Shown: positions 34,978-50,537 of the stretch, piece by piece
How the letters are laid out: each line of letters opens with the position of its first letter
Position numbering within the stretch: position 1 is the stretch's first letter
Assembly (NCBI GenBank): GCA_949282205.1
Contig: CASDOS010000059.1
Location: 6,135-70,134, forward strand
Direction: 5' to 3'
Source of the DNA: an uncultured Alphaproteobacteria bacterium
GTDB lineage: Bacteria; Pseudomonadota; Alphaproteobacteria; RF32; CAG-239
DNA length: 64,000 nucleotides
Made by a program: the position numbers and the translations under genes
Notes under the pieces: generated by a model
What the model was told of the DNA's origin: nothing
Databases searched by the model: none
Seen by the model: only the letters and a program-made list of their open reading frames with translations

Positions 34978-35033
34978 TTAAAAAGAAATGGTACAATGCC
35001 ATTGAAAATTTTTAATGTTAAGAAGAGAAAAAT

Positions 35034-36587
35034 ATGCTGTTAAACTATACAAAAATGGAGGAGAAAACAAAAGCGGCCGCATATGTACGCATGTCGACGG
35101 AACACCAGAAATATTCCCCGGAAAATCAAATGGCGGCAATACGAGACTATGCGGATAAGCACGGCTACGAAATAATACAAATATATTCTGATGAGGGGAA
35201 AAGCGGTTTAAATATTGCCGGTAGAGCATCTTTGCAACGGATGATTGATGATGTTCAAAACAAAAACGTCAAATACAAGGCCATATTGGTTCTGGATGTC
35301 ACGCGTTGGGGAAGATTCCAAGATGCGGACGAAAGCGCCTACTACGAATATATATGCAAACGTTCCGGGGTTCGCGTGCAGTACTGTGCCGAGCAATTTG
35401 AAAATGACGACAGTCCGATATCCACTATTGTCAAAGGCGTGAAAAGAACAATGGCCGCAGAATACAGCCGGGAACTGTCGGGCAAAGTATTTACGGGACA
35501 GTCAAGGCTTATAACACTGGGATACAGACAGGGCGGCCCCGCCGGGTACGGCTTGAGAAGAATGTTGATTGATGAATATGGAAATCATAAGGGAATTTTG
35601 GCACGGGGTGAACATAAGAGCATTGCAACAGATCGGGTAATCTTGGTGCCGGGATCTGAAGAAGAACAGGAAAACGTCCGTTGGATGTACAGGGCGTTTG
35701 TCTGCGAAGGCAGAAACGAAGGATGGATAGCTGATGAACTGAACCGCAGGGGTGTTAGAACGGATCTAAACAAAGAGTGGACTAAAGCAACGGTTCGGGA
35801 AGTTCTCAGCAATGAAAAATATATAGGGAACAACATATTCAACCGCATATCATTTAAGTTGAAAATAAAAAGGGTACGCAATCCAGAAGACATGTGGATC
35901 AGGAAAGATCAGGCTTTTCAGGGTATCGTCGACCCCAGTCTATTTTTTATGGCTAAAGGGATATTTGCCGCCCGATGCAGAAAACTCTCCGATGAAGAAA
36001 TGTTGCAAAAACTTAAAGAATTGCAGGATAAAAAAGGATATTTATCAGCCATAGTCATAGATGAGGCAGAAGACATGCCTTCCAGCGCAGCTTATTCGGG
36101 ACGGTTTGGTGGATTGGTACGCGCCTACCGGCTGATTGGTTTTGATCCGGGACGGGATTTCAGATATGTCGAGATTAACAGATATTTGCGGGAGTTGCAT
36201 CAGGAAAATATCCAAGACACCATACAAAAGCTTATGGATTGCGGAGCGGAGGTTAAACTAAATGAAAGTGGAAATTTGCTTAATGTTAACGATATGTTTT
36301 CTGCATCTTTGGTCATTTGCCGATGCAACAGCCTAAACAACGGAAAATACCGCTGGAAAGTACGCTTTGACACGATTCTCAATCCTGATGTAACCATCGC
36401 CGTCAGGATGAAGGCGGATAATGCCAGCGTGTTAGACTATTACCTGCTTCCTTCACTGGATTTTAGACTTCCAAATATAAAATTGGATGAACACAATGCG
36501 GGATTTATCGATTCTTACCGTTTTGAGAACATGGACTATCTTTACGAAATGGCGAAATGCATATCTATCCGGGAGGTAAAACAATGA
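35034..36587 (+). CDS. Large serine recombinase (resolvase catalytic domain + recombinase + zinc-ribbon region)
   Basis: AAYVRMSTEHQ...SPENQ...GKSG catalytic serine region; 517 aa. Confidence 0.85.
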   Translation: MLLNYTKMEEKTKAAAYVRMSTEHQKYSPENQMAAIRDYADKHGYEIIQIYSDEGKSGLNIAGRASLQRMIDDVQNKNVKYKAILVLDVTRWGRFQDADESAYYEYICKRSGVRVQYCAEQFENDDSPISTIVKGVKRTMAAEYSRELSGKVFTGQSRLITLGYRQGGPAGYGLRRMLIDEYGNHKGILARGEHKSIATDRVILVPGSEEEQENVRWMYRAFVCEGRNEGWIADELNRRGVRTDLNKEWTKATVREVLSNEKYIGNNIFNRISFKLKIKRVRNPEDMWIRKDQAFQGIVDPSLFFMAKGIFAARCRKLSDEEMLQKLKELQDKKGYLSAIVIDEAEDMPSSAAYSGRFGGLVRAYRLIGFDPGRDFRYVEINRYLRELHQENIQDTIQKLMDCGAEVKLNESGNLLNVNDMFSASLVICRCNSLNNGKYRWKVRFDTILNPDVTIAVRMKADNASVLDYYLLPSLDFRLPNIKLDEHNAGFIDSYRFENMDYLYEMAKCISIREVKQ

Positions 36588-37453
36588 ACAGAGAATTGCG
36601 CAACGTGGAAATCAATAAAATTTTCGTGCTGAATCCCAGAGAACGTAACAAACAAATAGCCAAAGAAATCCGTCAGAATATTGAAGATGTTGGATTAAAG
36701 CGCCCGATTACGATTTCAAAAAAAGCTGTTCCACAAGATGGATATGAATATGATTTAGTTTGTGGACAAGGCAGGCTTGAAGCCTATATGGCAAAAAATC
36801 AAACAACTATTCCTGCTATTATTGTTGATGCCAATGAGGAAGATTCTCTTATCATGAGTCTGGTTGAAAACATCGCCCGCAAAAATTACCAGCCGTATGA
36901 GCTTTTTAAAAATGTGAAACAGCTGAGAGACAATGGTTACAATTCCAATGAAATAGCGGAGAAAACAGGATTGGGAAAGGATTACATCAACCAAATGTTA
37001 AAATTGCAGGATCGTGGCGAAGAAAGATTAATTAATGCCGTTGAAACAAACAAAGTGCCGCTGAACGTTGCAATTCAAATCATAGAAACGCCGGACAGTG
37101 AAATGCAATCACTGTTGCAGGATGCCTATGAACAAAATCTAATCCGCGGAAATAAAATCGGACAAATAAAAAAAATCATAGAACAACGTAAAAAAAGCGG
37201 AAAAGGCCTGCGCTCAAGAGCGCATCAGCACAAACCTCTATCTCCGGCGGATTTAAACAAGATATATGAACAGGAAATAAGCAAAAAGCGTTTGCTAATC
37301 AGGAAAGCGGATAAAGTAGAAAGTACGCTTATATTCTTGATTGAAAGTTTTAAGAAACTTTTGGCAGATAGTAATTTTGCCAACCTGCTAAAAGCTGAAA
37401 ATTTAGAAAAATTGCCGCAATTTATATCGGAAAAGGTCAATCAAGATGTCTGA
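36557..37453 (+). CDS. ParB/Srx-fold protein with HTH (ParB-like 1)
   Basis: GLKRPITI...CGQGRLEAY...VENIARKN ParB boxes plus HTH. Confidence 0.6.
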   Translation: MHIYPGGKTMNRELRNVEINKIFVLNPRERNKQIAKEIRQNIEDVGLKRPITISKKAVPQDGYEYDLVCGQGRLEAYMAKNQTTIPAIIVDANEEDSLIMSLVENIARKNYQPYELFKNVKQLRDNGYNSNEIAEKTGLGKDYINQMLKLQDRGEERLINAVETNKVPLNVAIQIIETPDSEMQSLLQDAYEQNLIRGNKIGQIKKIIEQRKKSGKGLRSRAHQHKPLSPADLNKIYEQEISKKRLLIRKADKVESTLIFLIESFKKLLADSNFANLLKAENLEKLPQFISEKVNQDV

Positions 37454-38351
37454 ACAACTATTGCTTCCCGCCTTTGAAAACGAAATTCTCGAGATTAATA
37501 TTGAAGAATTGCATTTTTCTAAGGACATTCCTCCTCAATTATTAATGGGTAGAAAATTTCAGGTTATTCTCGCCTCAATAAAGGAAGTAGGAATTATCGA
37601 ACCTCCCGTTGTTACGGTGAAAAATGGAAAATATCTCTTGCTTGATGGACATCTGAGAGTTTCAGCGCTCAAACAACTTGGTTTTTCAATGGTCAGTTGT
37701 CTAATGTCCAAAGATGATGAAGCCTTTACCTACAATAAACATGTCAATCGTCTATCCAATGTCCAAGAGCACAAAATGATCGTCAAAGCCATAGAACGCG
37801 GAGTCACGCCTGAGCGGCTCGCAAAAGCCTTGGATTTTGACGTTGCAAACATTATCAGAAAAAAGAACCTGTTAGATGGTATCTGTGCCGAAGCAGCGGA
37901 AATACTCAACGATAAAATCATCTCCGGCAGTGTCTTCACATATTTAAAGAAAATGAAGCCGCAACGCCAAGTCGAAGCCGCGTACCTTATGACGGACATG
38001 GGAAATTTCAGCGCAAAATTCGCTCGTTCCATTTGGCTGGCAAGTTCTGACAAACAATTGGTAAATCCTATTAAACGTTCTTGCACGTTGGACATGGAAA
38101 AGCTTGGACGGCTCGAAAATGAAGTGTCTAAAATCCAAGGAGAATACAAAATTATGGAAGACAAATACGGTATTGACGTCCTCAATCTAACTTTGGTAAA
38201 AGGATACATTAGAAGTATTTTTGCCAATCCCAGAGTTGTCGGATACCTCAAAACGCACGAACCGGAAATTTATCAGCAGTTTGCCTCTATAGTGGAGCTT
38301 GACAGCATCAATACCGACAATGACAACCTTATTCAAAGAGCGACATTTTAA
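37446..38351 (+). CDS. ParB/Srx-fold protein (ParB-like 2)
   Basis: GIIEPPVV...LLLDGHLRVSALKQLG. Confidence 0.55.
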   Translation: MSEQLLLPAFENEILEINIEELHFSKDIPPQLLMGRKFQVILASIKEVGIIEPPVVTVKNGKYLLLDGHLRVSALKQLGFSMVSCLMSKDDEAFTYNKHVNRLSNVQEHKMIVKAIERGVTPERLAKALDFDVANIIRKKNLLDGICAEAAEILNDKIISGSVFTYLKKMKPQRQVEAAYLMTDMGNFSAKFARSIWLASSDKQLVNPIKRSCTLDMEKLGRLENEVSKIQGEYKIMEDKYGIDVLNLTLVKGYIRSIFANPRVVGYLKTHEPEIYQQFASIVELDSINTDNDNLIQRATF

Positions 38352-38356
38352 TCATT

Positions 38357-39205
38357 TTGGGGAATGACGGAAGCAATTATATGAAAATACGCATTTTATC
38401 TGATTTGCATCTGGATATAAACCAGAAAATTCCCTTTTTATTGGAAGACAAGGAAATTTTTACAGTATTATGCGGTGATATTTCAGGAAATCCCGAACAA
38501 ACAATAGAATGGATAAATCAAAACATAAAACAAGGCGTTTTTGTTGAAGGCAACCACATTGGCTACGATTCGCAACATTCAATCCAGTATATAGAGAACC
38601 TCTTGTCCTCCGAGTATCCAACCACCGCCACGGTGACATACCTCAAAAATGGTTTCAAAATGGTAGACGACATTGTTTTTGTCGGTGGAATTTTATGGAC
38701 GGATTTTAACTTATATGGCAAAGCATTTCAGACACTGCATAAATTATATGCTTCTCAGTTGATGAATGATTTTCGCTATAACTACACCAACACCAAACAT
38801 ATCAAAGAAGAAAACAGAAAAAACTTTCAGGAATTGGTGGCCAAAGAATGGATTCGCCAACTTCGTCCCAACGATACTGAAAAAATGTTTAACTCCACTC
38901 TGAAAAGCATAGATCATGCATGCCAAAAATTTTCTAACAAAAAAATTGTTGTGGTTACGCACCATGCTCCAAGCATAAAGTCCATTCCAGATATCTATCT
39001 TTCTGACAAAACAACTCCGGCCTTTGCCAGCAATCTGGAACAATTTATCTTGAACCGCCCCAATATTAAACTTTGGTGTCATGGCCACATTCATACTGCC
39101 TGCGACTATCATATAGGCAATTGTCGCGTGGTTTGTAATCCTAGAGGTTATGTACAACTCAGAGAAAGTAACCAATTTAACAATAATTGGATAGTTAAAA
39201 TGTAA
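38357..39205 (+). CDS. Calcineurin-like metallophosphoesterase
   Basis: LSDLHLD, GDISGNP, GNHIGYD, VTHHAP, GHIHT motifs. Confidence 0.7.
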   Translation: MGNDGSNYMKIRILSDLHLDINQKIPFLLEDKEIFTVLCGDISGNPEQTIEWINQNIKQGVFVEGNHIGYDSQHSIQYIENLLSSEYPTTATVTYLKNGFKMVDDIVFVGGILWTDFNLYGKAFQTLHKLYASQLMNDFRYNYTNTKHIKEENRKNFQELVAKEWIRQLRPNDTEKMFNSTLKSIDHACQKFSNKKIVVVTHHAPSIKSIPDIYLSDKTTPAFASNLEQFILNRPNIKLWCHGHIHTACDYHIGNCRVVCNPRGYVQLRESNQFNNNWIVKM

Positions 39206-39269
39206 CCCATCTATACTATACCACATAAAAAATAATTTTGATCACTATCTACTAAAACAAACAGTCTTC

Positions 39270-40448
39270 CTATATAGCAAGCAGGTAAGAACTTTGATTA
39301 TAATCAATCAGAAGAGAAATCGCTTTTCTAATCTGCGATCGAACAGAAGAGGATAAATGCTGAAATTCTATGCACTTTTCAAGTTGATAAAGGTAAAAAT
39401 CATCAACCATCTTTTGTGGTGGTAATATTCTAAAAGCTCTCTGAAGTCTTGAATAGATATCGCATAATGTCCGTTCTGAATAACAATATCTTTGACCTAT
39501 CCATGACAAAAAAGTAGATTTTTCAACAAGATATTGTGGAGAATTATCTTCAATAAAAGACTTTAAAATTTTAGCAACAAATTCCGCCAACTTTACAGGA
39601 ACAGCATTGCCAATCATTTGTTCTATTTCTGTTTTTGAGCCAACCCATTTAAAATCGACCGGAAAAGTTTGAATTAGAGCCCTTTCCAAAAGAGTTAAAG
39701 CTCTAATTTCTTCATTTAAAATACATGCATCATGGGGATGTCCTGGATATCCTTTAGGAACAGGACGATTTACACCTCGAATAGTTGGAGAAGGTTCATC
39801 AATAGAAAAAATAGCTCGTCTATCATAATTTCTAGGATGTCTATAGTAATACTCAAAACCTAAAGAGTTTCCAAAATAATCACGAAGGGTCATTTCTTTT
39901 GAGGATAGATTTTGAGAAATCAAATTTAAAGCAAAACCATCATCTTTCCCTTTTATTCCCATGCAAAAAAAACGCTTTCGCCTTTGTGGTACACCACAAA
40001 AACTAGCATCCAACACAATTTCCGTTAAACCATACCCCGCGTTCTTAAAAATATTCCTTGCAGAACTATAAGCGTGACTTTTTTGAGCACGATCCACATT
40101 TTCCATTAAAAAATACTTGGGACTGATTTCTTTAATTATATTTGCATAGGCCTCCGTTAAACTAGCTCTACTCGCTTCAATTCTTTTTCCTGCATGTGAA
40201 AAATCTTGGCAAGGAGGGCCACCTATAATCACCTCAGGATCTAAAGCCGATATTTCTTGAACAGCAGTACTGATTTGGGATAAATCAGTTGAAAATACGG
40301 GATGATTAAAATTTTGCCGATAACATTCCGCTGCAGCATTCCAAAATTCGAAAGCTCCCACAAGCTGAAAACCAGCATTTTCAAAACCTTTTGATAATCC
40401 GCCACATCCAGCAAATAAATCAACAACTCTCATTTTTTCCCTTTGCAT
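39270..40448 (-). CDS. DNA (cytosine-5)-methyltransferase
   Basis: Motif I DLFAGCGG, motif IV GGPPCQDFS, ENV motif. Confidence 0.85.
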   Translation of the reverse strand: MQREKMRVVDLFAGCGGLSKGFENAGFQLVGAFEFWNAAAECYRQNFNHPVFSTDLSQISTAVQEISALDPEVIIGGPPCQDFSHAGKRIEASRASLTEAYANIIKEISPKYFLMENVDRAQKSHAYSSARNIFKNAGYGLTEIVLDASFCGVPQRRKRFFCMGIKGKDDGFALNLISQNLSSKEMTLRDYFGNSLGFEYYYRHPRNYDRRAIFSIDEPSPTIRGVNRPVPKGYPGHPHDACILNEEIRALTLLERALIQTFPVDFKWVGSKTEIEQMIGNAVPVKLAEFVAKILKSFIEDNSPQYLVEKSTFLSWIGQRYCYSERTLCDIYSRLQRAFRILPPQKMVDDFYLYQLEKCIEFQHLSSSVRSQIRKAISLLIDYNQSSYLLAI

Positions 40449-40538
40449 TTTAAAATATTTAGATATAGGCTTATAATAAAATTAAATTTGAAGACGTCAA
40501 GTTGTTGACGCCAATTGTGCAAAACTATGAGGAAATAA

Positions 40539-41594
40539 ATGTCAACAGGATTATTTGGGATAGAACATTCAAATCGTATGCCTGAAGATCATTGGGGAAA
40601 GAATTGTTTCAATTCAAGTTTCCCAACTGCCATGGCTTGTTATATGATGAAGAATAATATACCTGCCATTTATAATAAAGTAGTATCGGATAACACAGGA
40701 AATTTGAAAGTAGTTTCAACGGAAATTCCTATTCAAAACGTTTTTAACTGTAATACCACAGATTCTCACGAACTTGATTTCCATTTTGAATCAATATATA
40801 AAAATTATCAAAATTTTTCTTTTGATCCAATTGATGGTATTGATCTCGTTGTCAAAAATACAGCAGGAGAGTTCCTCGCTCCATTAGAAGTTAAATTAAC
40901 TGTTTTACCAACAGATTCTACAAGTCGACAACCTGAAGAAAAATGGGGATGCGAATTAGTAATAAGATCTGCAACTACTTCATACTGTGCTCTTGGTATG
41001 TTTGATGCGGTTAAAGAAGAGGCATTATCCGTACGAGAGATTTTCGAGAACAATTGTGCATCTATTCAAAATTGGGACAATGATTTTGAAATGACTCATA
41101 AAACACCTAATTTAAGTCAATGTCTAGATGCTTTTCAAAAAAGGTATTATTTTCGTCAAAAGCCTCTTTTATTACAAGCCATATGGAAAACTAAAGGAAA
41201 ATCTCCTCTTCTAGCTGATCAAGCCTTTGATATTGTAGTCTGGAGTGATTATGCTTTTTCACGCTTGTTTATAGATAGTTCTTATAATATAGAAAATACC
41301 ATGAGCCGTCCCATGCGTGCTACAGCACGTCTAGCAAGATGTTTATGGGAATTAAGTAAGTCTAACAAAATTAGATTAATGGATATATATCGTCAAATGG
41401 CTTTTGGAAATCAAACCGATAAGGAGTTTGCTATTAACGGAGCAAAATGGAGAAAATATGTAGCTTCAGATAGAATTCTTAGCCCAAAATTATCCAAAGA
41501 TGTTATTCAAGAAATTATTGAGCCTGGATATATTGAACGATTAAGTCCTGAAAGGCGATTTGATCAATCACTATATTTTACTTATAGGATATGA
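40539..41594 (+). CDS. Putative type II restriction endonuclease partner of the C5-MTase
   Basis: Divergent from the MTase; candidate PD-(D/E)xK (D...LAPLEVKLT). Assignment by context only. Confidence 0.4.
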   Translation: MSTGLFGIEHSNRMPEDHWGKNCFNSSFPTAMACYMMKNNIPAIYNKVVSDNTGNLKVVSTEIPIQNVFNCNTTDSHELDFHFESIYKNYQNFSFDPIDGIDLVVKNTAGEFLAPLEVKLTVLPTDSTSRQPEEKWGCELVIRSATTSYCALGMFDAVKEEALSVREIFENNCASIQNWDNDFEMTHKTPNLSQCLDAFQKRYYFRQKPLLLQAIWKTKGKSPLLADQAFDIVVWSDYAFSRLFIDSSYNIENTMSRPMRATARLARCLWELSKSNKIRLMDIYRQMAFGNQTDKEFAINGAKWRKYVASDRILSPKLSKDVIQEIIEPGYIERLSPERRFDQSLYFTYRI

Positions 41595-41865
41595 TTAAAG
41601 ATGAGAATTCACTGGCTAATGCCGTGGTATCGTATCATTTTAGTTCAAGCTAACCTTACCCTATATTTTCATGGTCTTGGTGTTTTATATAGCACTATAT
41701 AGCTATCTCATTGAATATAAACAGTACTGATAAAATACCCATCTACCCAAACACTTTCTTTGCCGAAATAACATTTCTAAGAAAAGGATATATTTCCCAT
41801 ACTAGATTTAATTATATTACATTCATCTAAAAAAATAATATCAATCAAATACCGTTTTTTTATTG

Positions 41866-41904
41866 TTTTTTATGTATTCTATAATTTTTTATGTATTCTA
41901 TAAT
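41866..41904 (+). repeat. Tandem ~20-bp direct repeat (tttttatgtattctataat x2), each copy carrying a TATAAT box, 25 nt upstream of the 493-aa gene
   Basis: Read directly. Confidence 0.8.
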
Positions 41905-41928
41905 ACAATATAAAAAAAGGAGTTATTT

Positions 41929-43410
41929 ATGTATGCAACATGGTTGTATTTTGTAGGAACAAAAAAAGATCCTACCAAGTTTTTTATATATGGACTATCT
42001 ATTCCTACTAAATGCCCAATAGAATATTCTTTAAAACAAGAAGACCTCGGAAGTATTGCTGACGGTTTGCGATTATATGTTTTTCGTGCTGTAAAACAAA
42101 TCGCTATACCTATTCCTCCTGATGTTATAGATTTAAGCCTGTTTTATGACACACTAGAGTATCATATTAAACATATACTCACACCATTATATTGCGAAAA
42201 ATTTATTCAAAAAAAAGAAAGTTGTCATTTTGATAAAGAAATAGAAAGTCCTATATCTTCATTAGTAAATATAACATCATATTATACAAAAGAAATTTTG
42301 GAACTTAATTTTAATTATAAAAATTATATCAAGTTATTGCAAAAACTTTCAGAACATTCCAACCAACCATTCTATGGTAATTATCTTAATAGATTAGGAT
42401 GTCTTGAAATAGCTCAAACACAACCATGGTCTGAGAGTTTTCGTCCTTTTGGCATAGAATATGATAAAGAAGAAAAAAAATATTACTTCTATCGTCAAAC
42501 AGAATTTTTAGAAGATATATATGTAGTATTTAAATGTTATCAAACATCAATCGAAAAAAATTATGAAAAGCTTATATTTATCCCTGCAAAAACGACAAAA
42601 TACTACTTCGATTTTAATGTTGAGAATGAATGGGGATATAAATGTTCTGTTTATAATCAATTTGGTGAAATACTAGATGAAGATTGTGTATCATATATTC
42701 GTAGTGTAAATATCAATATATCTACTATATCTGGCATACGAAAAATAAAAGATGCTTTTTCAGAAAGAGATCCTGAACTATCCAAAATTCCTTGCAATAT
42801 TAGTCAATCATTTACTATACAAAATCCTAATTTAGAAACAAAGAAAAAAGAACTTGAAGATTTTTACACATATTTAGAAAGAATCATAAAAGAAGACAGC
42901 ATCAGTGAACAAGAAGGCTTCTGGTTCAAACGAGGACAACATAAATTAAGCGACATAATAAAATATTTAACAACACAATTTCCCAATCCTGATGAAATTA
43001 TAATAATTGATCCATATGCAGACATTGACACAATATCTCTTTCTATAAGGCTTCCTGCAAATAAAATAATAGTCATAGCAAACAATAAAGCTCTATCCAA
43101 CAAAGAAAATGTACACAAAATAAAGCTAGTGAAAAAACGAATAAAAGAAGCATCAGGAATTTCTGATAGGTCAACCTATTATTACATCAATAAAGAATTT
43201 CATGATAGATTTATAATTTTCAAAAAAAACGACATAATCGAAGTTTATTGTTTTCCTAATAGTATTAACGCAATATTAAAAAATGATGACTTTTTAATAT
43301 TGCGTTTACGAGGAAAAGTAAAAGAAGAAGCAATACAGCATATGAATAATCTAATATCTTTATGTGGTCCAAATAATACATTAGAAAGTATAAACAATGA
43401 ATCTGAATAA
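41929..43410 (+). CDS. Hypothetical 493-aa protein (very AT-rich gene)
   Basis: ORF; AGGAG ribosome-binding site; no recognised motifs. Confidence 0.5.
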   Translation: MYATWLYFVGTKKDPTKFFIYGLSIPTKCPIEYSLKQEDLGSIADGLRLYVFRAVKQIAIPIPPDVIDLSLFYDTLEYHIKHILTPLYCEKFIQKKESCHFDKEIESPISSLVNITSYYTKEILELNFNYKNYIKLLQKLSEHSNQPFYGNYLNRLGCLEIAQTQPWSESFRPFGIEYDKEEKKYYFYRQTEFLEDIYVVFKCYQTSIEKNYEKLIFIPAKTTKYYFDFNVENEWGYKCSVYNQFGEILDEDCVSYIRSVNINISTISGIRKIKDAFSERDPELSKIPCNISQSFTIQNPNLETKKKELEDFYTYLERIIKEDSISEQEGFWFKRGQHKLSDIIKYLTTQFPNPDEIIIIDPYADIDTISLSIRLPANKIIVIANNKALSNKENVHKIKLVKKRIKEASGISDRSTYYYINKEFHDRFIIFKKNDIIEVYCFPNSINAILKNDDFLILRLRGKVKEEAIQHMNNLISLCGPNNTLESINNESE

Positions 43411-44641
43411 TGAATTGGGTTTTGCAGAATTATCTGAAAAAATAATAGCTGAGAATACAGAAGATGTTTTTTGTTGCTTACAAAAAGAAACTCTATCATT
43501 AATCCAATTTGTTGGAATACTATCCCTTTTTGCACACAAACATATATCAAATAAATACATTTCTATCGCGTCTGAAATATTAAAAAAAAGGTATATGAAC
43601 AATATTTATATAGAATTGGAAAAAATTCCTGAACTATTTAATGAAGCATCTCATATTGCATATGAAGACATACAAAAATTTTTTGAAAATGATTTCTCTT
43701 TAACCCTCGTCCATACTATAGCTTTCTCTGAACAAATTAAATTCAATGCATCAAAATCAATTTGGGGGTTAATCTACTTATATACACTGTTGTTAAAATT
43801 AGATCTTAAAAATTTTGAAATATGGATAAAAAAAACAAAAAGAATTGATTTCAAAGTTATATTTCTAAATCTCTTATTTAACCACATTCAGAATGAAAAT
43901 ATTGATGTAGATAAGCTAAAAGATGCACATTTAGGTATTCTACAATCTTTCCATGTGCTGGTAACCTATGGACTGGAACCTAATTCTCATAATGTATGGT
44001 CTAGACAATCAAAAAATATTGAAGAAATTTTAAATAGCCCCTTAGCAGAAAAAGTAAAATTTTTAACTATTCTCAAATATATAACAAAAAAATATTGCGG
44101 TACCTCACTAAAAAAATTAGATCAAGATGAAAACTTACCTCAACTAATAAAACTATTATATGCTACTGATTATAATTTCACATGGGACGACTTGATGGTG
44201 TCAACAGGCATTCGTGAATCTTGTATTTACTATCGTATTATACAATTATTGCCAGAAACAAATACAAATAAAGTAAATTATTTTGAAAGACTGCTTGAAA
44301 AAATACTAAACTATCTAAAAGCAGAAATGTTTCAAGAATACAATTTAGATTATGCTGAATTAATAGGCAGAATATCGACTGAAATATCATCTTTAGAAAA
44401 ATTGGAAGCCTTATTTAAAAAAGAATATAAACAACTTTCTTTTCCTTATAGCTTTTGTAAAATAAAAAACTGGCAGGAAAGAATTTCTTTCTGCCTCTAT
44501 TTATTGGTAGGAATTTATATCTATAAAAAAAATAATAATGAAGAATTTAATACATATATTGATAAATTTAGATTCATAAAATCAGAAAAACATCACTATT
44601 TCGACCAGAGAATAGAAGAATTATTATTGTCATTGACATAA
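43397..44641 (+). CDS. Hypothetical 414-aa all-alpha protein, in an operon with the preceding gene
   Basis: 14-nt overlap with the upstream gene. Confidence 0.5.
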   Translation: MNLNNELGFAELSEKIIAENTEDVFCCLQKETLSLIQFVGILSLFAHKHISNKYISIASEILKKRYMNNIYIELEKIPELFNEASHIAYEDIQKFFENDFSLTLVHTIAFSEQIKFNASKSIWGLIYLYTLLLKLDLKNFEIWIKKTKRIDFKVIFLNLLFNHIQNENIDVDKLKDAHLGILQSFHVLVTYGLEPNSHNVWSRQSKNIEEILNSPLAEKVKFLTILKYITKKYCGTSLKKLDQDENLPQLIKLLYATDYNFTWDDLMVSTGIRESCIYYRIIQLLPETNTNKVNYFERLLEKILNYLKAEMFQEYNLDYAELIGRISTEISSLEKLEALFKKEYKQLSFPYSFCKIKNWQERISFCLYLLVGIYIYKKNNNEEFNTYIDKFRFIKSEKHHYFDQRIEELLLSLT

Positions 44642-44675
44642 CAAAACTTGTGTAAATAAAGTGCAATGAATTTAT

Positions 44676-45089
44676 TTATATCTCTCTATCTAAATTATAT
44701 TTTATTAACGAAGAACTAATATTAGGAGTTCTTTGTAAACGGACAACTCCTTTGCCATTTTGGCGGCAATACTCTATCGCACTAATAAATCCAGAATGAT
44801 TTTGGTCTGCTCCAACGGCAAAAATATCAAAGTCAATATGCCTCACTATTTCACTAACATCTGTATAAGAAATAACTTTATCTACGCAACGTAATGCCCC
44901 AACCAGTTCACATCGAACATCAGTTGAATAAAAAACATCCGCCTCTGGTTTATATTTTTTTATAAATTCAGATTTTTGTACTGCTACAATTAAAAATCCA
45001 TCCGAAACAATATTTTTTGCCTGTTCAAAAAGTTTTAAATGTCCATAATGGAAATAGTCAAAAACACCTACTGTTAAAATCCTTTTCAT
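44676..45089 (-). CDS. tagD: Glycerol-3-phosphate cytidylyltransferase
   Basis: GVFDYFHYGHLKLFEQAK (HxGH) motif; 137 aa. Confidence 0.75.
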   Translation of the reverse strand: MKRILTVGVFDYFHYGHLKLFEQAKNIVSDGFLIVAVQKSEFIKKYKPEADVFYSTDVRCELVGALRCVDKVISYTDVSEIVRHIDFDIFAVGADQNHSGFISAIEYCRQNGKGVVRLQRTPNISSSLIKYNLDREI

Positions 45090-46375
45090 TTTTTCAGCTC
45101 CAAGGAATTTGTCAGAAATTTAATAATTTTTGATGCAGAAGAAATTTCTGAATCGAATAAAATATGTATCTTAGACAGACGTTCCTCCTTTTTGATATCC
45201 TGATTTTCAAAAATAACTTTTTTAAAAATTTCTTCCAAATCAGAAATATCATAAATTTGATAGAGACTATCAATAAATGATTTCGCGAAATTATTAAATT
45301 TGGCCGCTGGAGAAATCAGATGAAAAATCGGATTCTTGCTCGGCAGATATTCTCCTAAAAATGAAACACAATCTGTTATTAAAGCATCTGAATCTGCAAA
45401 TAATTGTATATAATCACCACTGTCATAAATTGTACCTAGATTTTCCCATTGACGGTAATAGGTGTTAATTTCATCTTCCGACATAATATTATTGCAAACA
45501 ACTGCCGTCTTAAATCTCGGATGAGGCTTAAACACCCAATTGATATATCCCTGATATTTTTGTGCCAAGGAGAGAATATCCATGCCATTTTTATGAAAAG
45601 TTGCACAATTTAATCCATTAATTTCAAAAGAATGATGTGGAGCATAAATAATAGTTTTCTTTTTATTTTTAGTAGCCTTGATTTTACGATAAGCATCGAG
45701 CCTGGGGTAGCCCACATAACAAGCATTAACATTATTTTTACCTGTTATTAATTTTATCCGATTAATTTGTTCGCTATCCTCAACAAACATACACCATAAA
45801 AAATTATCAGTATAAATTGCGCTATTTTCCATAAGATGCAATCCATATGGAACGTAGCATGTCAATGCTGATTTTGATGCATTTACAGGATGTTGGGAAG
45901 CATCAAGCTCCCAAGGCTGTTGATAAAAAAGAATATCGACCCCAAAATCTTTGGCGGGCATATACTCTTTCCGATCCTTGTCATAAACATAAAACACTTT
46001 TAGACCTTTTGATTTGAAGAAATTATAGCAATCATCAATAGTTGCATAAAAATGTTTTTTCCCTCTATGAGCCAGGAGCAATTGCGTTACCAAAACTACT
46101 GGCTCAAAATAATCGCTTTTTTCCATTTCTTCATAAAGGGATTGATATTGCCACTTTGCCGGTTCATTAACTAAAAAGCCCACCTTAATTTTGCGCTTTC
46201 CAAACTCTTTTTGTAATTCGGTCAACTTCCGTGCATAATTTACAGAAACTTTCTTTCTGTAGTCATGTTTTATAGAAAATTTAATACCTAAAATGGTGAT
46301 TTTTGTTTTTGGAAATCCTTGTTTGAAGTCAAATATTTTCATGATTGCCGCCATACTAATTAAAACTTTTTTCAT
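45086..46375 (-). CDS. CDP-glycerol glycerophosphotransferase-family (TagB/TagF-like) protein
   Basis: YAPHHSF resembles the TagF YAPTWR region; operon context with the tagD-like gene; tentative. Confidence 0.5.
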   Translation of the reverse strand: MKKVLISMAAIMKIFDFKQGFPKTKITILGIKFSIKHDYRKKVSVNYARKLTELQKEFGKRKIKVGFLVNEPAKWQYQSLYEEMEKSDYFEPVVLVTQLLLAHRGKKHFYATIDDCYNFFKSKGLKVFYVYDKDRKEYMPAKDFGVDILFYQQPWELDASQHPVNASKSALTCYVPYGLHLMENSAIYTDNFLWCMFVEDSEQINRIKLITGKNNVNACYVGYPRLDAYRKIKATKNKKKTIIYAPHHSFEINGLNCATFHKNGMDILSLAQKYQGYINWVFKPHPRFKTAVVCNNIMSEDEINTYYRQWENLGTIYDSGDYIQLFADSDALITDCVSFLGEYLPSKNPIFHLISPAAKFNNFAKSFIDSLYQIYDISDLEEIFKKVIFENQDIKKEERLSKIHILFDSEISSASKIIKFLTNSLELKK

Positions 46376-46961
46376 CTTTTAATTTTTCAAAATGCACTTT
46401 GTCGCGATATTTGAATACTTTTGCTGGATTGCCGCCGGCAATAGCTAAAGGCGGAATTTCTCCATGGATAACCGCTCCGGCTTGAATAATTGCTCCATCA
46501 CCGATTTTGGTTCCCGGAAGAATGGTTACTCTGCTACCAATCCAAACAAAATTACCAATTTCAATATCTTTATAAATGTAATCCTCGGGAGAATATGGTA
46601 TATGTTGGCCATGGTCATAATTATGGTTTTGTGCAATGATAAGTAATTCTACACCGCTGTGAAAATGGTTGCCAATAGTTACTTTTCCTGCACCGTGTAT
46701 CTCACAACCATTGAAACAGCAATGTGTTCCAAGAAATGTATTTTTTGTAAGCAGAGTTTTGCCACCGCACCATAGTCGTTCTCCAACTTGGGGGCATTCT
46801 CTATAAATTTTTTGTGTCCATATATTATTATATCCATCAAATTTATCATTTTTGACTTTTAGAAAGGGAATAAGGCCAAATAAATAGTATTTTTTTCGAT
46901 GCTCATCTTCTTCTATTCTACATATCGGAAGACATGAAAACAACTTAACAACTTTACTCAT
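46356..46961 (-). CDS. Hexapeptide-repeat O-acetyltransferase (maltose/galactoside acetyltransferase-like)
   Basis: Left-handed beta-helix repeats GSRVTILPGTKIGDGAIIQAGAVIHGEIPPLAIAGGNPAKV. Confidence 0.75.
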   Translation of the reverse strand: MSKVVKLFSCLPICRIEEDEHRKKYYLFGLIPFLKVKNDKFDGYNNIWTQKIYRECPQVGERLWCGGKTLLTKNTFLGTHCCFNGCEIHGAGKVTIGNHFHSGVELLIIAQNHNYDHGQHIPYSPEDYIYKDIEIGNFVWIGSRVTILPGTKIGDGAIIQAGAVIHGEIPPLAIAGGNPAKVFKYRDKVHFEKLKDEKSFN

Positions 46962-47763
46962 TGGAAAGCTCCTTGCTTCTATATACTGTAATGCCTAATA
47001 TTTTTATCCGCCGATGATTGTTTTTGATGTTATTGCGGTAGAAAAATTTCTGCAATTTGGCACACAATCTATAAAATTTCATTTTCGGATACTTTTTCAG
47101 AAGTTTTGTTCTCAACATTAAAGAATGCTGAGCCATCTGTTGTTTATTTCTTGATTCAAATAAATTTTTTATTCTGTAAAAAAACAAAATATCAGGAACT
47201 CTGTAGACCTTAAGTTTATGAATTAAAACCATATTAAGCCATAAATCGTAATCTTCTAATCCAAGAACAAAATCCTCATCGTAACCTCCGGCTTTAATAA
47301 AATCAGTTTTCCTGAATAAAGCCGAATTTACTAAACAGTTATTGACAGACAAATGATAAGGTGTTGGGGAATGCAATACCATTTCTCCCGTTTCTTTTCC
47401 AAATTTAAGGACTCGTGAAGTTATGATATCACCTTTACCATTTATTATAGCATTGTACAGTTTTTCTAAGCACTCAGGTGTTATTTTATCATCAGCATCC
47501 AAGGGATAAATATATTTTCCCTTCGCTTTGGAAATAGCATTATTACGAGCAAAAACAACTCCCTGATTGGATTGATCGAGCAAGCGAAAATTTTTATATT
47601 TATTTGTATATTGTTTGATGATTTTCAAAGAATCGTCTGTTGATCCATCATTGACGATAATCACTTCATAATTCGTAAATGTTTGTGCCAAAACAGAATC
47701 TAGGCATTCTGCAATATATTTTTCCTGATTAAAACACGGAATAATAACTGAAATTTCAGGCAT
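46954..47763 (-). CDS. Glycosyltransferase family 2
   Basis: ISVIIPCFNQEKYIAECLDSVLAQTFTNYEVIIVNDGSTDDS; start moved to MPEIS, which has an AAGGA ribosome-binding site. Confidence 0.8.
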   Translation of the reverse strand: MPEISVIIPCFNQEKYIAECLDSVLAQTFTNYEVIIVNDGSTDDSLKIIKQYTNKYKNFRLLDQSNQGVVFARNNAISKAKGKYIYPLDADDKITPECLEKLYNAIINGKGDIITSRVLKFGKETGEMVLHSPTPYHLSVNNCLVNSALFRKTDFIKAGGYDEDFVLGLEDYDLWLNMVLIHKLKVYRVPDILFFYRIKNLFESRNKQQMAQHSLMLRTKLLKKYPKMKFYRLCAKLQKFFYRNNIKNNHRRIKILGITVYRSKELSNE

Positions 47764-48625
47764 ATTGCTTTCCTTTAAGCTTACACGACCATTTGTAGGA
47801 AAAGAGAAGAATTTTTTCAAACAGATAGAATCTTGTTTTATTTCTCCAGGATCTGATTGTAATCAAAGGTAGAAAACCAAATAAGTTAATCCGATAAGTA
47901 TGGAGACCTTCCATTTGAAAAAAATTATACAATGCAGGATTCTCTGCCTGAACTTGAGCGCGGATAGCAAAAGAAGCTATCGACATTTTTTCTTGTTGTG
48001 TTTTTGAGGTGTTCGTACCATGGTCGCGGTATTTAAATAAAACATCAGGAAGGTTATGAAATTTAGTATAAGGTATCAGCCGACACCACAAACGATAATC
48101 TTCAGCAGGAGAAAAATAAGCTTCATAGCGAATACTGTTTATCATAAGGATGTTCTTTTTTATCATAGAAGCCGGATGAACAATAGCACAAACACTCATA
48201 AGAGATGCCTTAATTTCCTCATCAGTGAGTGGATGAGTAATTATTTTTTTCTTTTTTTGAAAAACTTCTACAGCACAACCGACAACGCCTATTTCAGGAT
48301 GTTCATCTAAATATTGAGATTCTTTTTCAAGCCTTTCTGGTAAAGAAATATCATCATGGTCAAAAACAGCCAAATATTCACCTTTGGCCATATCAATCAA
48401 TTTGTTGCGGCTGGCGGAAATACCAAGATTTTTCTCATTTTTGAAATATTTAATGCGTTTGTCTTTATAGGATTTAACAACAGCCTCTCGATCATCTTCT
48501 GGACAGTCATCCAAAATCAAAAACTCAAAATCGGCAAAAGTTTGTTTTAAAATGCTTTCTATTGCCTCTCGCAAATAAAGCTCGGGTGTTTTATACACTG
48601 GCATTAAAACTGAAATTTTGACCAT
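47756..48625 (-). CDS. Glycosyltransferase family 2 (first gene of the operon)
   Basis: ISVLMPVYKTPELYLREAIESILKQTFADFEFLILDDC; start moved to MVKIS, which has a GGAGG ribosome-binding site. Confidence 0.8.
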   Translation of the reverse strand: MVKISVLMPVYKTPELYLREAIESILKQTFADFEFLILDDCPEDDREAVVKSYKDKRIKYFKNEKNLGISASRNKLIDMAKGEYLAVFDHDDISLPERLEKESQYLDEHPEIGVVGCAVEVFQKKKKIITHPLTDEEIKASLMSVCAIVHPASMIKKNILMINSIRYEAYFSPAEDYRLWCRLIPYTKFHNLPDVLFKYRDHGTNTSKTQQEKMSIASFAIRAQVQAENPALYNFFQMEGLHTYRINLFGFLPLITIRSWRNKTRFYLFEKILLFSYKWSCKLKGKQYA

Positions 48626-48774
48626 AAAACCTCCTGACATTAAAAGGCCAAATAGTGTCGGGACGGTGACAAATGTCTGTAATAATTTAGATGTAAAAAG
48701 ACACCTTCCGGTTTTTAGAAGCAAACCTCTTGAACATAGCCGGAACATCCCGAACGTGAACATTAAACATGGGC

Positions 48775-48922
48775 GTTTAACGAACGTTAGGCGGCTACAA
48801 TGGACTATTTGCAAAGGAAAACGTTTACTAAATTGAAAATATAAAATTATTTGTATAAAAACAGATAAAAAACTTGAGATTTTTTATAACTAGTTTATAA
48901 AGAAATCTAACGTTCGTCAGAT
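48775..48922. promoter_or_regulatory. Candidate invertible promoter segment flanked by inversely oriented recombinase-type sites. Left: gTTTAACG-AA-CGTTAGgc at 48775-48792. Right: ATCTAACG-TT-CGTCAGAT at 48905-48922. Plus-strand TTGAAA/TATAAA and TTGAGA/TATAAA promoter-like hexamers inside.
   Basis: 11-bp perfect inverted repeat ACGAACGTTAG. Each site is internally palindromic around a 2-bp core (AA vs TT); core-to-core distance is about 130 bp. Adjacent serine invertase gene. Confidence 0.35.
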
Positions 48923-48969
48923 TTTGATAGCCAAAAAAAAGGTTTATACCTTTTGATATCCATATAATT

Positions 48970-49566
48970 TTAACCGTTTCCTCTTTCTAAAAAATTATAG
49001 ATTGTAGTAACACTAACCCCCATCATTTTTGCAACTTGCGTTTTAGGAACACCTTTATTTAACAATCTGGCAATACTTTGTTCTCTTCCATCAAGAATAT
49101 GCTTTTTATTGCGACTGCCAAATTCCCGCCCAAGCTTTCGGCCACTGGCTCGGATTCGATGCAAAGCCTCTTTGGTTCGTTGACTGATGAGATTTCTCTC
49201 AATTTCAGCAGAGAGTGAAAAAGCAAATGCAAGAACTTTGCTTTGAATATCAACACCCAAACGATAGTTGTCTTTAATTGTCCAGACTTGAGATTCTTTT
49301 TTCATACAAATATTTAAAATTGTCATGATTTGTAAAAGGTTGCGTCCAAGGCGGGATATTTCAGAACAGATTAAGATATCTCCTTTTTTCAATTTTTTAA
49401 GAAGTTTTCCGAGTTTACGTTTTTCAAAATCTTTTGTACCACTGATTGTTTCCGTAATCCATTTGTCGATTGAAATGTGTTCTCTTTCGCAAAAAGTTTT
49501 GATTTCAAATTCTTGATTTTCCAATGTCTGTTTATCGGTGCTTACTCGTAAATATCCGTAAATCAT
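48970..49566 (-). CDS. Small serine recombinase (Hin/Gin/resolvase family DNA invertase)
   Basis: MIYGYLRVSTDKQ...ENQ catalytic N-terminus, C-terminal HTH (GVPKTQVAKMMGVSVTTIYNFL); 198 aa. Confidence 0.85.
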   Translation of the reverse strand: MIYGYLRVSTDKQTLENQEFEIKTFCEREHISIDKWITETISGTKDFEKRKLGKLLKKLKKGDILICSEISRLGRNLLQIMTILNICMKKESQVWTIKDNYRLGVDIQSKVLAFAFSLSAEIERNLISQRTKEALHRIRASGRKLGREFGSRNKKHILDGREQSIARLLNKGVPKTQVAKMMGVSVTTIYNFLERGNG

Positions 49567-49612
49567 ATCACTCTCCTAAAATTTAGATATAAAAAAAGTC
49601 CTCCAGCTATTG

Positions 49613-49813
49613 CTAACTGGAGGTACATATTTCATCATATATTATGTTATTCCTGTCAATTTGCCGAATTGTTTCCGGTGTGTCATGTTCATAGTCAGCA
49701 TAGACAGGTTCATATAAAAGGCAGTAATTACCGTTTATATTTGCCGTGCAGGCGGTTAATACACTCATTATCAGACAAGCTGTTGCGAGCTTTTTTAGCA
49801 ATTTTGAGAGCAT
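49613..49813 (-). CDS. o-spanin (Rz1-like outer-membrane lipoprotein)
   Basis: Lipobox LTAC; overlaps the i-spanin gene in a different frame. Confidence 0.55.
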   Translation of the reverse strand: MLSKLLKKLATACLIMSVLTACTANINGNYCLLYEPVYADYEHDTPETIRQIDRNNIIYDEICTSS

Positions 49814-49937
49814 TGTTTTCTCCTTTTAACTGTTCTTTTTCTGCGGTTTCCTTGGCGTGACGATAACCAAACAGATATAAAAAAAGAGCGAAGGCCGCAA
49901 AAACCACCGCTTTAAATTTCTTTAGAATTTCCATCAT
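49728..49937 (-). CDS. i-spanin (Rz-like: N-terminal TM + periplasmic coiled coil)
   Basis: TM AVVFAAFALFLYLF followed by a charged helical region; 86-nt out-of-frame overlap with the lipoprotein gene. Confidence 0.5.
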   Translation of the reverse strand: MMEILKKFKAVVFAAFALFLYLFGYRHAKETAEKEQLKGENNALKIAKKARNSLSDNECINRLHGKYKR

Positions 49938-50130
49938 CTTTTTTTCTCCTGCTCATTCCAATATCCCGCACGCCACTGATGCCAAGCATTATACCCAGAC
50001 TGGTCAGCAGTTGCTCCCAATCTACAAGTTCCACATCAAAATATGGTGCAATCACGCAGTTGTTGAGGAACCCATAACACAAAATCCAGCCAATCAGCGG
50101 AATCCATGAACGTTTATTTAATTTTGGCAT
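49912..50130 (-). CDS. Holin-like 2-TM protein
   Basis: 72 aa, two hydrophobic segments; position in the lysis cassette. Confidence 0.4.
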   Translation of the reverse strand: MPKLNKRSWIPLIGWILCYGFLNNCVIAPYFDVELVDWEQLLTSLGIMLGISGVRDIGMSRRKKDDGNSKEI

Positions 50131-50537
50131 AATTCAATCCCCTGTTGGATAAGCTCATCCGAATATGGCTGAATACCGTTTTCCATACGGATAACGGCTT
50201 TAATAAACACTGTCAGCACACCGCGTTCCTCAATATCTATAACCGTGTCCGGATAAACCCCGAGTTGTTTCGCAACCGACTGAATATAGGCGGTGGTTTG
50301 GTTTTCATTTGGCGGCGCATAGCGGCTGACAATCTGGCGAACCGTATTTAACCCATGGATTCGTTTGTAGTTTATCAGAACTTTTGCCAACGCCCGGATT
50401 CCATAGACCGGAGCCGTAAAAACACAAAAGGCGGAATCCATATTCCGCCCGTTTGGATTTAACCCCAGCCAGTTCGCTCCATGCCGTATGTTTCCCGGAT
50501 TATTGTTTCTTATGCCTCTTGGCAACTGCTGATTCAT
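50118..50537 (-). CDS. Phage protein with RGIRNNNPGNIR motif (annotated elsewhere as 'structural protein P5'-like); possible endolysin by position
   Basis: Motif recognised from prophage proteins; function uncertain. Confidence 0.35.
   Translation of the reverse strand: MNQQLPRGIRNNNPGNIRHGANWLGLNPNGRNMDSAFCVFTAPVYGIRALAKVLINYKRIHGLNTVRQIVSRYAPPNENQTTAYIQSVAKQLGVYPDTVIDIEERGVLTVFIKAVIRMENGIQPYSDELIQQGIELCQN

Follow-up and report, generated by a model that had tools for sequence, protein, structure and literature searches.

Two overlapping genes in a human-gut prophage, designated here A and B, probably constitute a two-gene anti-phage system, a divergent relative of the VPA1262 (Juno) family that is split into two proteins and carried as an autonomous low-GC cassette. 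The pair lies directly 3' of a Dcm/HindVP restriction-modification (R-M) pair, within a prophage accessory region with a large serine recombinase (Table 1). The open reading frame of B starts inside the end of A, and the two share 14 nt. GC content falls from 0.33-0.34 at 40.5-41.5 kb to 0.26-0.28 at 41.5-45 kb of the window (the whole stretch of DNA analysed, 64,000 nucleotides). By module, it is 0.262 for the cassette, 0.338 for the R-M pair, 0.402 for the recombinase module, and 0.459 for the phage structural genes. An earlier note on this DNA, made from the letters alone, had described two overlapping genes with products of 493 and 414 aa, a sharp fall in GC from about 41.6 kb, and a site beside a Dcm methyltransferase and a putative restriction enzyme in a serine-recombinase element; both reading frames, the fall in GC, and all three neighbours are confirmed, the last with the Pfam assignments given in Table 1. 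Scans of the window with Rfam and for tRNA genes found no match.

Table 1. Features of the A-B locus, with positions numbered from the first letter of the window.
Feature	Positions	Strand	Description
Large serine recombinase	35034-36587		
Dcm methyltransferase	39270-40448	-	PF00145, E=2e-66
HindVP-type restriction enzyme	40539-41594	+	PF09519, E=3.5e-83
Whole A-B cassette	41850-44686	+	Short promoter region, A, B, and the 45 nt that follow B; limits from L001/L002 identity
Tandem duplication	41866-41904	+	Period 19 nt; two 20-mers TTTTTTATGTATTCTATAAT with one common base
Shine-Dalgarno AAAGGAG	41916-41922	+	Read from sequence; 6 nt upstream of gene A ATG
Gene A	41929-43410	+	493 aa, ATG start
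PLD-fold domain of A (about residues 330-480), predicted catalytic effector	42916-43368	+	Foldseek on AlphaFold model
H425-D426-R427 codons, HxR variant of PLD HxK	43201-43209	+	100% conserved in 137 family sequences
N444-S445-I446-N447 codons, counterpart of PLD GSxN	43258-43269	+	N444 97%, S445 99%, N447 84% (137 sequences)
Gene B	43397-44641	+	414 aa, ATG start

Gene A and the VPA1262 N-terminal region

Against NCBIfam model NF040700 (VPA1262_N_dom), A scores 70.7 bits (E=1e-19), with residues 133-476 aligned to positions 109-476 of the 478 in the profile. This is short of the curated cutoff of 80, a level exceeded by bridging relatives (P0030 at 147 bits, P0048 at 229 bits). A is nonetheless clearly homologous to the N-terminal half of VPA1262 proteins, if distantly so. 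The full-length model, NF040699 (1,026 positions, cutoff 325 bits), has no match to A or B at E≤1, and no NCBIfam model matched B.

The absence of recognisable motifs reported in the earlier note stands for Pfam, PADLOC, and PHROGs, none of which gave anything usable for A or B, and falls for NCBIfam, by the match to NF040700, and for predicted structure. PADLOC-DB v2.0.0 returned for A only Csx19 (E=0.0077, no stretch passing alone), and nothing for B or for the fused relative P0074. Sequence searches of the PDB with A and with B found no match. Close homologues of A number 20 among 5.8 billion clusters, and a collection of 1.84 billion proteins yields 188 cluster representatives of A homologues. 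The N-terminal region of about 115 residues differs between clades, and many distant matches begin at profile position ~113-138. In predicted architecture, A has a beta-rich N-terminal part of about 300 residues and, after it, a PLD-like domain that reaches the C-terminal end; AlphaFold models A with pLDDT 80 and pTM 0.51, which makes the packing of the domains uncertain.

Gene B and the C-terminal region of fused proteins

The AlphaFold model of B (pLDDT 83, pTM 0.83) is all helical, a predicted alpha solenoid, for which fold searches of PDB and BFVD returned only weak ARM/HEAT-like similarity (E>0.1). In a profile-profile comparison of alpha-helical proteins, hhalign matched the B-family profile to the C-terminal regions of fused family members at 93%, not above 99%, with E=3e-7 over 260-388 collinear columns, a link that appeared only once partners of intermediate relatives had joined the B alignment. 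Of the controls, the reversed one came out at E=0.8 and the ten block-shuffled ones at E=0.2-0.8. The B profile had no significant match to cl3 and cl4, two small clusters of C-terminal regions from fused proteins (E=0.09 and 0.86), or to three singletons, and direct HMM or phmmer searches with B itself among the fused C-terminal regions were not significant either. The partner of P0048 does match such regions in BLASTP, at 8e-8. Partners of distant A homologues match B at E=4e-20 to 3e-3. Profile comparison thus relates B, as an apparent homologue, to the C-terminal half of fused VPA1262-like proteins of ~1,000-1,300 aa. Since A corresponds to the N-terminal half and B to the C-terminal half of such proteins, A and B together would represent a split Juno-like system.

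Among the best 150 of the 188 representatives, 35 are 840-1,300 aa in length with an N-terminal A region and 77 are 450-560 aa, and by this count fused proteins make up about a quarter of the family. The fused proteins align well into the C-terminal half of the 1,026-position NF040699 profile (P0118 over positions 6-870, at 293 bits; P0074 over positions 12-827), at scores of only 101-293 bits, below the cutoff of 325. The single polypeptide characteristic of VPA1262, an N-terminal domain followed by a C-terminal region of ~500-700 aa, is not what the window encodes; the two halves are instead two overlapping genes.

Pairing, distribution, and cassette exchange

Whether the two genes travel together had been put forward in the earlier note as a check. 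They do: in all of the 13 A/B pairs examined the two reading frames share 4-44 nt, and the genes co-diverge, the pairwise identities of A co-varying with those of B (r=0.983, Mantel p=2e-4). A further member, L007, has a longer, non-overlapping partner and adjoins SIR2 and an integrase. The neighbours of the pair overall are R-M, Olokun, HipAB, and transposase genes, on prophages, conjugative elements, and recombinase elements. Relatives on a conjugative element that encodes a type IV secretion system adjoin MmeI R-M, and others adjoin Olokun with HipAB, Mrr, or a serine recombinase, or else Bsp6I/Dcm. HipAB adjoins the pair in L009-L011, and R-M cassettes adjoin it in the window, L001, L003, and L015. 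The family was not found in a plasmid collection searched in DNA and protein mode, a phage collection searched in protein mode, or IMG/VR. A scan of GTDB gave one match in 185,579 species genomes, a metagenome scan one locus, and a word-indexed search that started from a broad alignment of B only one new protein.

The A-B cassette of the window recurs at 99% identity in a related prophage (L001 and L002, from other samples), where the flanking cassettes differ on both sides and the R-M system adjoining A-B is a different one. A-B is a discrete, horizontally exchanged cassette that has moved as one unit. Co-inheritance with the Dcm methyltransferase and the HindVP enzyme was tested and not found. 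At the four cassette junctions, no common recombination motif was seen beyond AT-rich 9-12-mers. The prophage accessory region shows clear modular exchange, involving R-M, A-B, and glycosylation cassettes, between phages that are otherwise 96-99% identical. A role for A-B as an accessory or extra subunit of the adjacent Type II R-M system was considered and rejected, because the cassettes are swapped independently.

A PLD-type domain with a variant motif

Foldseek comparison of the modeled C-terminal domain of A found SauUSI (7clg, E=3.3e-5), TrmBL2 (E=3.4e-5), and PPK1 (E=1.5e-4), followed by BfiI (2.6e-3), Tdp1 (4.6e-3), and Zucchini (1.1e-2), with probability 0.99-1.0 for all matches listed. 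The domain has a PLD alpha/beta fold, a finding that belongs to the predicted structure only. In the sequence itself, the strand-helix pattern IIIDPYAD...R is a typical PLD-domain start. Across 137 family sequences the only invariant or near-invariant residues (D361, P362, H425, D426, R427, N444, S445, and N447) all fall in the PLD domain, giving the family signature DP...H-D-R...N-S-x-N, which is a variant HKD motif. HDR[FY][LI] followed by NSxN, the invariant VPA1262/Juno motif, is present in A. The canonical HxK(x)4D(x)6GSxN is absent; A reads H-D-R...(16 residues)...N-S-I-N, with R for K and N for G, and each chain has one HxR half-site motif.

Canonical PLD enzymes have K where the A family has R, and some PLD-fold domains are non-catalytic, the C-terminal domain of TrmBL2 being an example. 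However, the conservation of H, D, R, N, S, and N at PLD-motif positions, in sequences down to 17-25% identity, argues for catalysis. The C-terminal domain of A, with its predicted PLD fold and DP...HDR...NSxN residues, is the probable catalytic centre of the family. Pfam models PLDc, PLDc_2, and RE_NgoFVII match none of 18 clade members, even at E≤10. The window also encodes a separate Nuc-like PLDc_2 protein; hhalign aligns it to A in the correct register, setting H-D-R of A on its H-N-K, in a weak match (E=0.024-0.36).

Comparison with known systems

The VPA1262 family ("Juno") is a single-gene anti-phage system, validated as defence only in August 2026; four coliphages were each held back more than 100-fold by VPA1262 and by a homologue from Pantoea, the validated proteins are fused and come from Gammaproteobacteria (Vibrio, Pantoea), and the text consulted assigns neither a mechanism nor domains (bioRxiv 10.64898/2026.08.01.741415). 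A is homologous to the N-terminal ~480 residues of Juno proteins, with the universally conserved HDR...NSxN signature common to both; the profile comparison above ties B to the C-terminal half; and both A-B and Juno are cargo of mobile "armoury" islands with R-M and other defence systems. They differ in that A-B is two overlapping genes rather than one polypeptide of ~1,000 aa, that A is under both curated cutoffs and B without an NCBIfam match, that A-B comes from an uncultured low-GC human-gut prophage/bacterium rather than from Gammaproteobacteria, and that the A-B clade is rare, by the counts of close homologues and GTDB species genomes given above. Of the checks suggested in the earlier note, PADLOC supplied no model, while remote homology and structure prediction brought out the NF040700 match, the PLD-type fold, and the kinship of B with fused family members. 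Its description of the pair as candidate novel defence cargo is supported as to defence cargo by the exchanged cassette, the constant pairing, and the defence neighbours, and gives way as to "novel" before the VPA1262/Juno homology. Rather than an unrelated new system, A-B is a divergent version, in two genes, of a kind described only very recently.

The Juno family, then, also occurs in two-gene form, in gut-associated mobile elements outside the Gammaproteobacteria, and the natural separation of its two halves is an experimental handle on effector versus sensor or regulator. PADLOC v2, Pfam, and the NCBIfam cutoffs all miss the A-B clade, which is therefore under-represented in inventories of defence systems from gut phages and bacteria.

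With the PLD nucleases (Nuc, BfiI, SauUSI, NgoFVII, and Zucchini), A shares the predicted fold of residues ~330-480, one half-site motif per chain, the position of the His nucleophile, a similarly spaced Asn/Ser pair, and an association with restriction or defence. It differs from them in having H-D-R rather than H-x-K, in the Pfam models that fail to match, and in adding an unrelated beta-rich N-terminal part of ~300 residues and a solenoid partner. SauUSI has a helicase domain, which A lacks, and BfiI a B3-like DNA-binding domain, of which none is identifiable in A. Sensors of the Avs type carry repeat arrays. The second protein of GAPS6 joins TPR and PINc domains (bioRxiv 10.1101/2023.03.28.534373). 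A-B would resemble these in pairing a nuclease-type effector with an alpha-helical repeat module, probably recognising a phage component, but it has no sequence or fold kinship with them and no NTPase or STAND module, and the resemblance is one of design, not membership.

Proposed mechanism and alternative explanations

The analysis establishes the homology and architecture of A-B, the joint inheritance of its genes, the mobility of its cassette, and its setting among defence genes; its defence activity, complex formation, catalysis, substrate, and trigger are inferred, as follows. Translational coupling would supply A and B in fixed proportion, and the pattern of fusion and splitting suggests that the two assemble into a unit equivalent to the single-chain fused proteins. 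The alpha solenoid of B may serve as a sensing or regulatory scaffold. A would be the effector, through a phosphodiesterase domain of PLD fold in which each chain supplies a single H-x-R...N-S-x-N half-site. In the PLD nucleases Nuc, BfiI, and Zucchini, the active site is made from two half-sites brought together, and two A domains would have to meet in the same manner. On infection, the complex would most likely cut nucleic acid, with phage DNA as its target or else with no discrimination, as in abortive infection.

The high rank of SauUSI and BfiI, both PLD restriction enzymes, among the structural matches, the R-M cassettes beside the pair at several loci, and the clade-variable N-terminal ~115 residues of A, which would fit a variable target-recognition module, are consistent with a restriction-like PLD nuclease acting directly on foreign DNA (Type IV or Type IIS-like), with B as specificity or regulatory subunit and with neither abortive infection nor a protein sensor. 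We consider this unlikely, for no methyltransferase or self-protection gene moves with the pair and the neighbouring R-M cassette is swapped independently; in addition, A-B has no helicase/NTPase domain, unlike SauUSI, and B looks like a protein-binding solenoid rather than a known DNA-recognition fold. Such an enzyme would depart from the anti-phage system proposed above only in trigger and outcome. A maintenance or addiction module of the mobile element, in which a PLD-type toxin A is restrained by B and anti-phage action is not the main function, seems very improbable. Roughly one quarter of the family is fused, which is hard to square with an unstable antitoxin freed from a stable toxin; A and B are large for a type II pair, and fused relatives expressed alone protect against phage. 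In favour of such a module are the constant location of the pair on mobile elements (prophage, conjugative element, recombinase islands), the tight coupling and overlap of its genes, and HipAB as an occasional neighbour.

We give hardly any credence to a non-defensive phage or mobile-element accessory, whether its PLD-like domain is non-catalytic, as in a TrmB-like ligand-binding regulator, or A is a PPK1-like phosphotransfer enzyme. TrmBL2 and PPK1 do rank level with the nucleases among the fold matches of A, the canonical HKD lysine is missing, and no Pfam PLD model matches; but the six residues at PLD active-site positions are conserved in 137 sequences across the divergence noted above, the neighbourhoods are consistently defence-related, and anti-phage activity has been demonstrated for homologues. 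Returning to a split Juno-like defence system, it is conceivable, if rather doubtful, that the HxR PLD-like domain is not an ordinary DNA nuclease, and that the fused and split family has a new effector chemistry with the solenoid as a new type of phage sensor. The domain might cleave or make a nucleotide-derived molecule, or might act on RNA or phospholipid. If so, the natural split would make sensor and effector available as separate proteins with which to work out the mechanism of the whole family.

The promoter region

Upstream of A, the earlier note had marked a tandem 20-bp repeat with a TATAAT box in each copy as a feature of the promoter. The repeat and boxes are real, with copies at 41866-41885 and 41885-41904, each ending in TATAAT, but the true period is 19, the copies having one base in common. 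The 99%-identical cassettes L001 and L002 have a single copy, and the 19-bp duplication therefore appears recent and specific to the window. A conserved operator or promoter element was rejected, since the nearest relatives are without the duplication; a consensus promoter scan at the repeat found no -35/-10 pair, and the repeat is better regarded as a strain-specific duplication than as a designed regulatory element. The Shine-Dalgarno sequence of gene A is rated strong, and is kept in both L001 and L002.

Homology of genes A and B

The two AT-rich genes, A and B, are found in the ORF listing as the earlier note had described them, on one strand and overlapping, here by 14 nt, with a strong Shine-Dalgarno sequence (AAAGGAG) ahead of A. 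That they carry no recognizable motifs holds for both genes in Pfam, PADLOC and PHROGs, and for B in NCBIfam and in PDB sequence searches as well. It does not hold for A in NCBIfam, where the sole match is NF040700, "VPA1262 family N-terminal domain" (E=1e-19). A residues 133-476 align to profile positions 109-476 of 478, scoring 70.7 bits, below the cutoff of 80.

VPA1262 of Vibrio parahaemolyticus is located in the GMT island VPaI-6. An August 2026 preprint notes that the function of the family had been unknown and renames it Juno (bioRxiv 10.64898/2026.08.01.741415); no statement on domain content or mechanism was found in its text. A-B is a split variant of this family, low in GC and scoring below its cutoff. 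The earlier reading of the pair as candidate novel defence cargo stands in part: defence is a predicted function well supported by homology and context, but the genes are not unrelated to known systems. The two-gene architecture, the partner family B and a PLD-type (phospholipase D) HxR signature are new, as is the fact that the system is borne by gut prophages and mobile elements.

An exhaustive search of 1.84 billion cluster representatives with an A profile found just 188 relatives at E<=1e-3. Among the best 150 of these, 77 are 450-560 aa long, and 35 are fused forms of 840-1,300 aa in which the A-like region is N-terminal. Every ~500-aa family member on a readable contig has a partner gene directly 3', so the two genes do travel together, as the earlier note had proposed to check. 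Homologues 41-99% identical to A (metagenomic loci L001-L004 and L009-L014, and protein pairs P0002/P0022, P0003/P0024 and P0007/P0026, paired by their same-sized longest contigs) have partners of 412-420 aa. Those 17-25% identical (L006, L015, L016, L018) have partners of 365-472 aa with homology to B (BLASTP 4e-20 to 3e-3; HMM E=2.4e-34 for L006). In L007 the partner has 658 aa and follows after a 98-bp gap. The genes overlap by 4-44 nt in 13 of 13 pairs, and the A and B pairwise identity matrices are strongly correlated (r=0.983, Mantel p=2e-4).

The L007 partner directly matches fused C-terminal regions (P0074, 8e-8; P0080, 3e-7; P0151, 2e-5). A B-family profile of 16 sequences aligns with the main cluster of such regions over 260-388 collinear columns (hhalign 93%, E=3e-7; reversed template, E=0.8; ten block-shuffled templates, E=0.2-0.8). 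The fused proteins themselves reach far into the C-terminal half of NF040699, "VPA1262 family protein" (1,026 positions), P0118 covering positions 6-870 with 293 bits and P0074 positions 12-827. From these sequence comparisons we conclude that A is equivalent to one half of a VPA1262-type protein and B to the other. Two small clusters of fused proteins, as well as three singletons, went unmatched by the B profile; C-terminal halves may therefore be replaceable.

Predicted structure and function

Structure prediction, suggested in the earlier note, assigned a PLD fold to the C-terminal domain of A and an alpha-solenoid to B. The AlphaFold model of A (pLDDT 80, pTM 0.51) has a beta-rich N-terminal region of ~300 residues, a helical linker, and an alpha/beta domain at ~330-480. 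In Foldseek searches against the PDB, this last part matches the PLD superfamily: SauUSI (E=3.3e-5), TrmBL2 (3.4e-5), PPK1 (1.5e-4), BfiI (2.6e-3), Tdp1 (4.6e-3) and Zucchini (1.1e-2). Among 137 aligned domain sequences, D361, P362, H425, D426, R427, N444, S445 and N447 are conserved at 84-100%, and HDR[FYLIV][LIVF] is present in nearly all full-length members. The family pattern H-D-R...N-S-x-N is the counterpart of the PLD half-site HxK...GSxN, with Arg in place of Lys. The HDR aligned on the HNK of the window's own Nuc-like PLDc_2 protein, but this profile match is non-significant (E=0.024-0.36), so the predicted PLD assignment draws on modeled structure and motif pattern rather than sequence statistics. 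The model of B is confident and all helical (pLDDT 83, pTM 0.83), with just weak ARM/HEAT-type likeness in fold searches of PDB and BFVD (E>0.1).

Like every functional statement on A-B, the following mechanism is a prediction. The gene overlap and the existence of fusions suggest that A and B would form a stable complex. In Nuc, BfiI and Zucchini, two PLD half-sites pair into an active site; with one half-site per chain, two A domains would have to pair likewise. The solenoid B would likely be the sensing or regulatory part, and the N-terminal ~115 residues of A, which vary between clades, could help in target recognition. The most likely output would be nucleic-acid cleavage, targeted or abortive. 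Alternatively, A-B might act as a direct restriction-like enzyme or as an addiction module, or the PLD-like domain of A might be non-catalytic.

Host element and cassette exchange

From ~34.8 kb to its end the window is a prophage or phage-like element, ~90-95% identical to uncultured human-faecal phage contigs, which also carries tail fibre and tail tube genes. The Dcm methyltransferase and restriction enzyme that the earlier note placed upstream of A-B, and the serine recombinase of the element, are all found.

Features of the window
Feature	Position	Strand	Description
Two DnaJ-domain proteins	15942-17474, 20082-20888		J domain C-terminal
Fic-domain protein	31647-32696	-	C-terminal HTH, SoFic-like; PADLOC PDC-S72, E=6e-120
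Nuc-like PLDc_2 protein	33579-34136	-	185 aa; DrmC-like (E=5e-14)
Large serine recombinase	35034-36587		517 aa
Two ParB-like genes, metallophosphoesterase	36557-39205		ParB-like genes in tandem, 298 and 301 aa; 3' of recombinase
Dcm methyltransferase	39270-40448	-	
HindVP-family restriction enzyme	40539-41594		
Tandem repeat	41866-41904		period 19; two exact 20-mers overlapping by one base, TATAAT at end of each
Gene A	41929-43410	+	493 aa
Gene B	43397-44641	+	414 aa
Glycosylation and invertase genes	44676-49566	-	
Tail tip J-like protein	50730-52955		
YhcG/DUF1016 PD-(D/E)xK nuclease	52969-53985	-	candidate system PDC-S02 (PADLOC), E=4e-139
Tape measure protein	56963-59581		
E-type major capsid protein	62724-63752		

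The reported fall in GC near 41.6 kb is borne out by computed values of 0.26-0.28 from ~41.5 kb. The 0.262 of the cassette compares with 0.338 for the adjoining restriction-modification (R-M) pair, 0.402 for the recombinase module and 0.459 for phage structural genes. Compared with L001, a 48.6-kb metagenomic contig, the window is 98% identical at 34788-39154 (HTH gene, recombinase, both ParB-like genes, phosphoesterase), 99% at ~41850-44686 (A-B) and 96% at 49626-50731 (small genes ahead of the tail gene), while 44687-49625 is replaced in L001 by 256 bp with a small sigma-70 region-4 gene. A-B thus forms a discrete cassette (~2.84 kb) that is swapped independently of its neighbours. The accessory region (window 39155-49625, L001 4368-13014) consists of independently swappable R-M, A-B, and glycosylation and invertase cassettes between backbone segments 96-99% identical; no common recombination motif was found at four cassette junctions.

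The tandem promoter repeat is real. Its 19-bp unit is single-copy in L001 and L002, and the repeat is therefore a recent, strain-specific duplication. With it the promoter region gains a second TATAAT box, and the sequence upstream lies 19 bp farther from the start codon; compared with L001 and L002, the A-run ahead of the Shine-Dalgarno motif is also longer by one A. Together these changes may alter cassette expression in this strain.

Neighbouring genes and candidate defence cargo

Relatives of A-B have neighbourhoods characteristic of defence islands. L003 has a type IV secretion/relaxase conjugative element, then MmeI-type R-M, DEAD helicase and T5orf172 genes; L004 a serine recombinase, HTH, PLD nuclease, HxsD/radical-SAM genes and AAA_15; L007 SIR2_2, a DUF4011 helicase and an integrase; L015 Bsp6I/Dcm R-M and a MazG-like gene; L016 and L017 a transposase, with HEPN-Toprim also in L017. 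L009-L014 carry Olokun (PADLOC: OloA E=4e-15, OloB E=9e-31), along with HipAB, Mrr, an SLFN-like helicase or a serine recombinase. In this clade, 46-47% identical to A, the A-B pair is always divergent from the Olokun genes (~615 and ~590-600 aa), which lie on the - strand directly upstream of the A homologue (for example L014 6321-9933; OloA 3.8e-15, OloB 8.8e-31). The arrangement is constant across three different contexts, which may reflect co-mobilization or cooperation.

Within the window, the Fic and PLDc_2 genes just left of the recombinase module may be additional defence cargo, and the YhcG/DUF1016 gene is inserted among tail genes. The DnaJ-domain proteins have otherwise uncharacterized N-terminal regions and are surrounded by ORFs without a Pfam or NCBIfam match. 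The prophage-borne genes downstream of B encode a cytidylyltransferase, a CDP-glycerol glycerophosphotransferase-like protein, a hexapeptide acetyltransferase and two GT2 glycosyltransferases, along with an invertase of the Mpi family that scores above the cutoff of NF009949, "master DNA invertase" (309 bits). This looks like a phage-encoded, possibly phase-variable module for surface-polysaccharide modification, and is missing from the related prophage L001. The ParB-like genes and metallophosphoesterase, which have no PADLOC match, are kept with the recombinase at 98% identity in L001.
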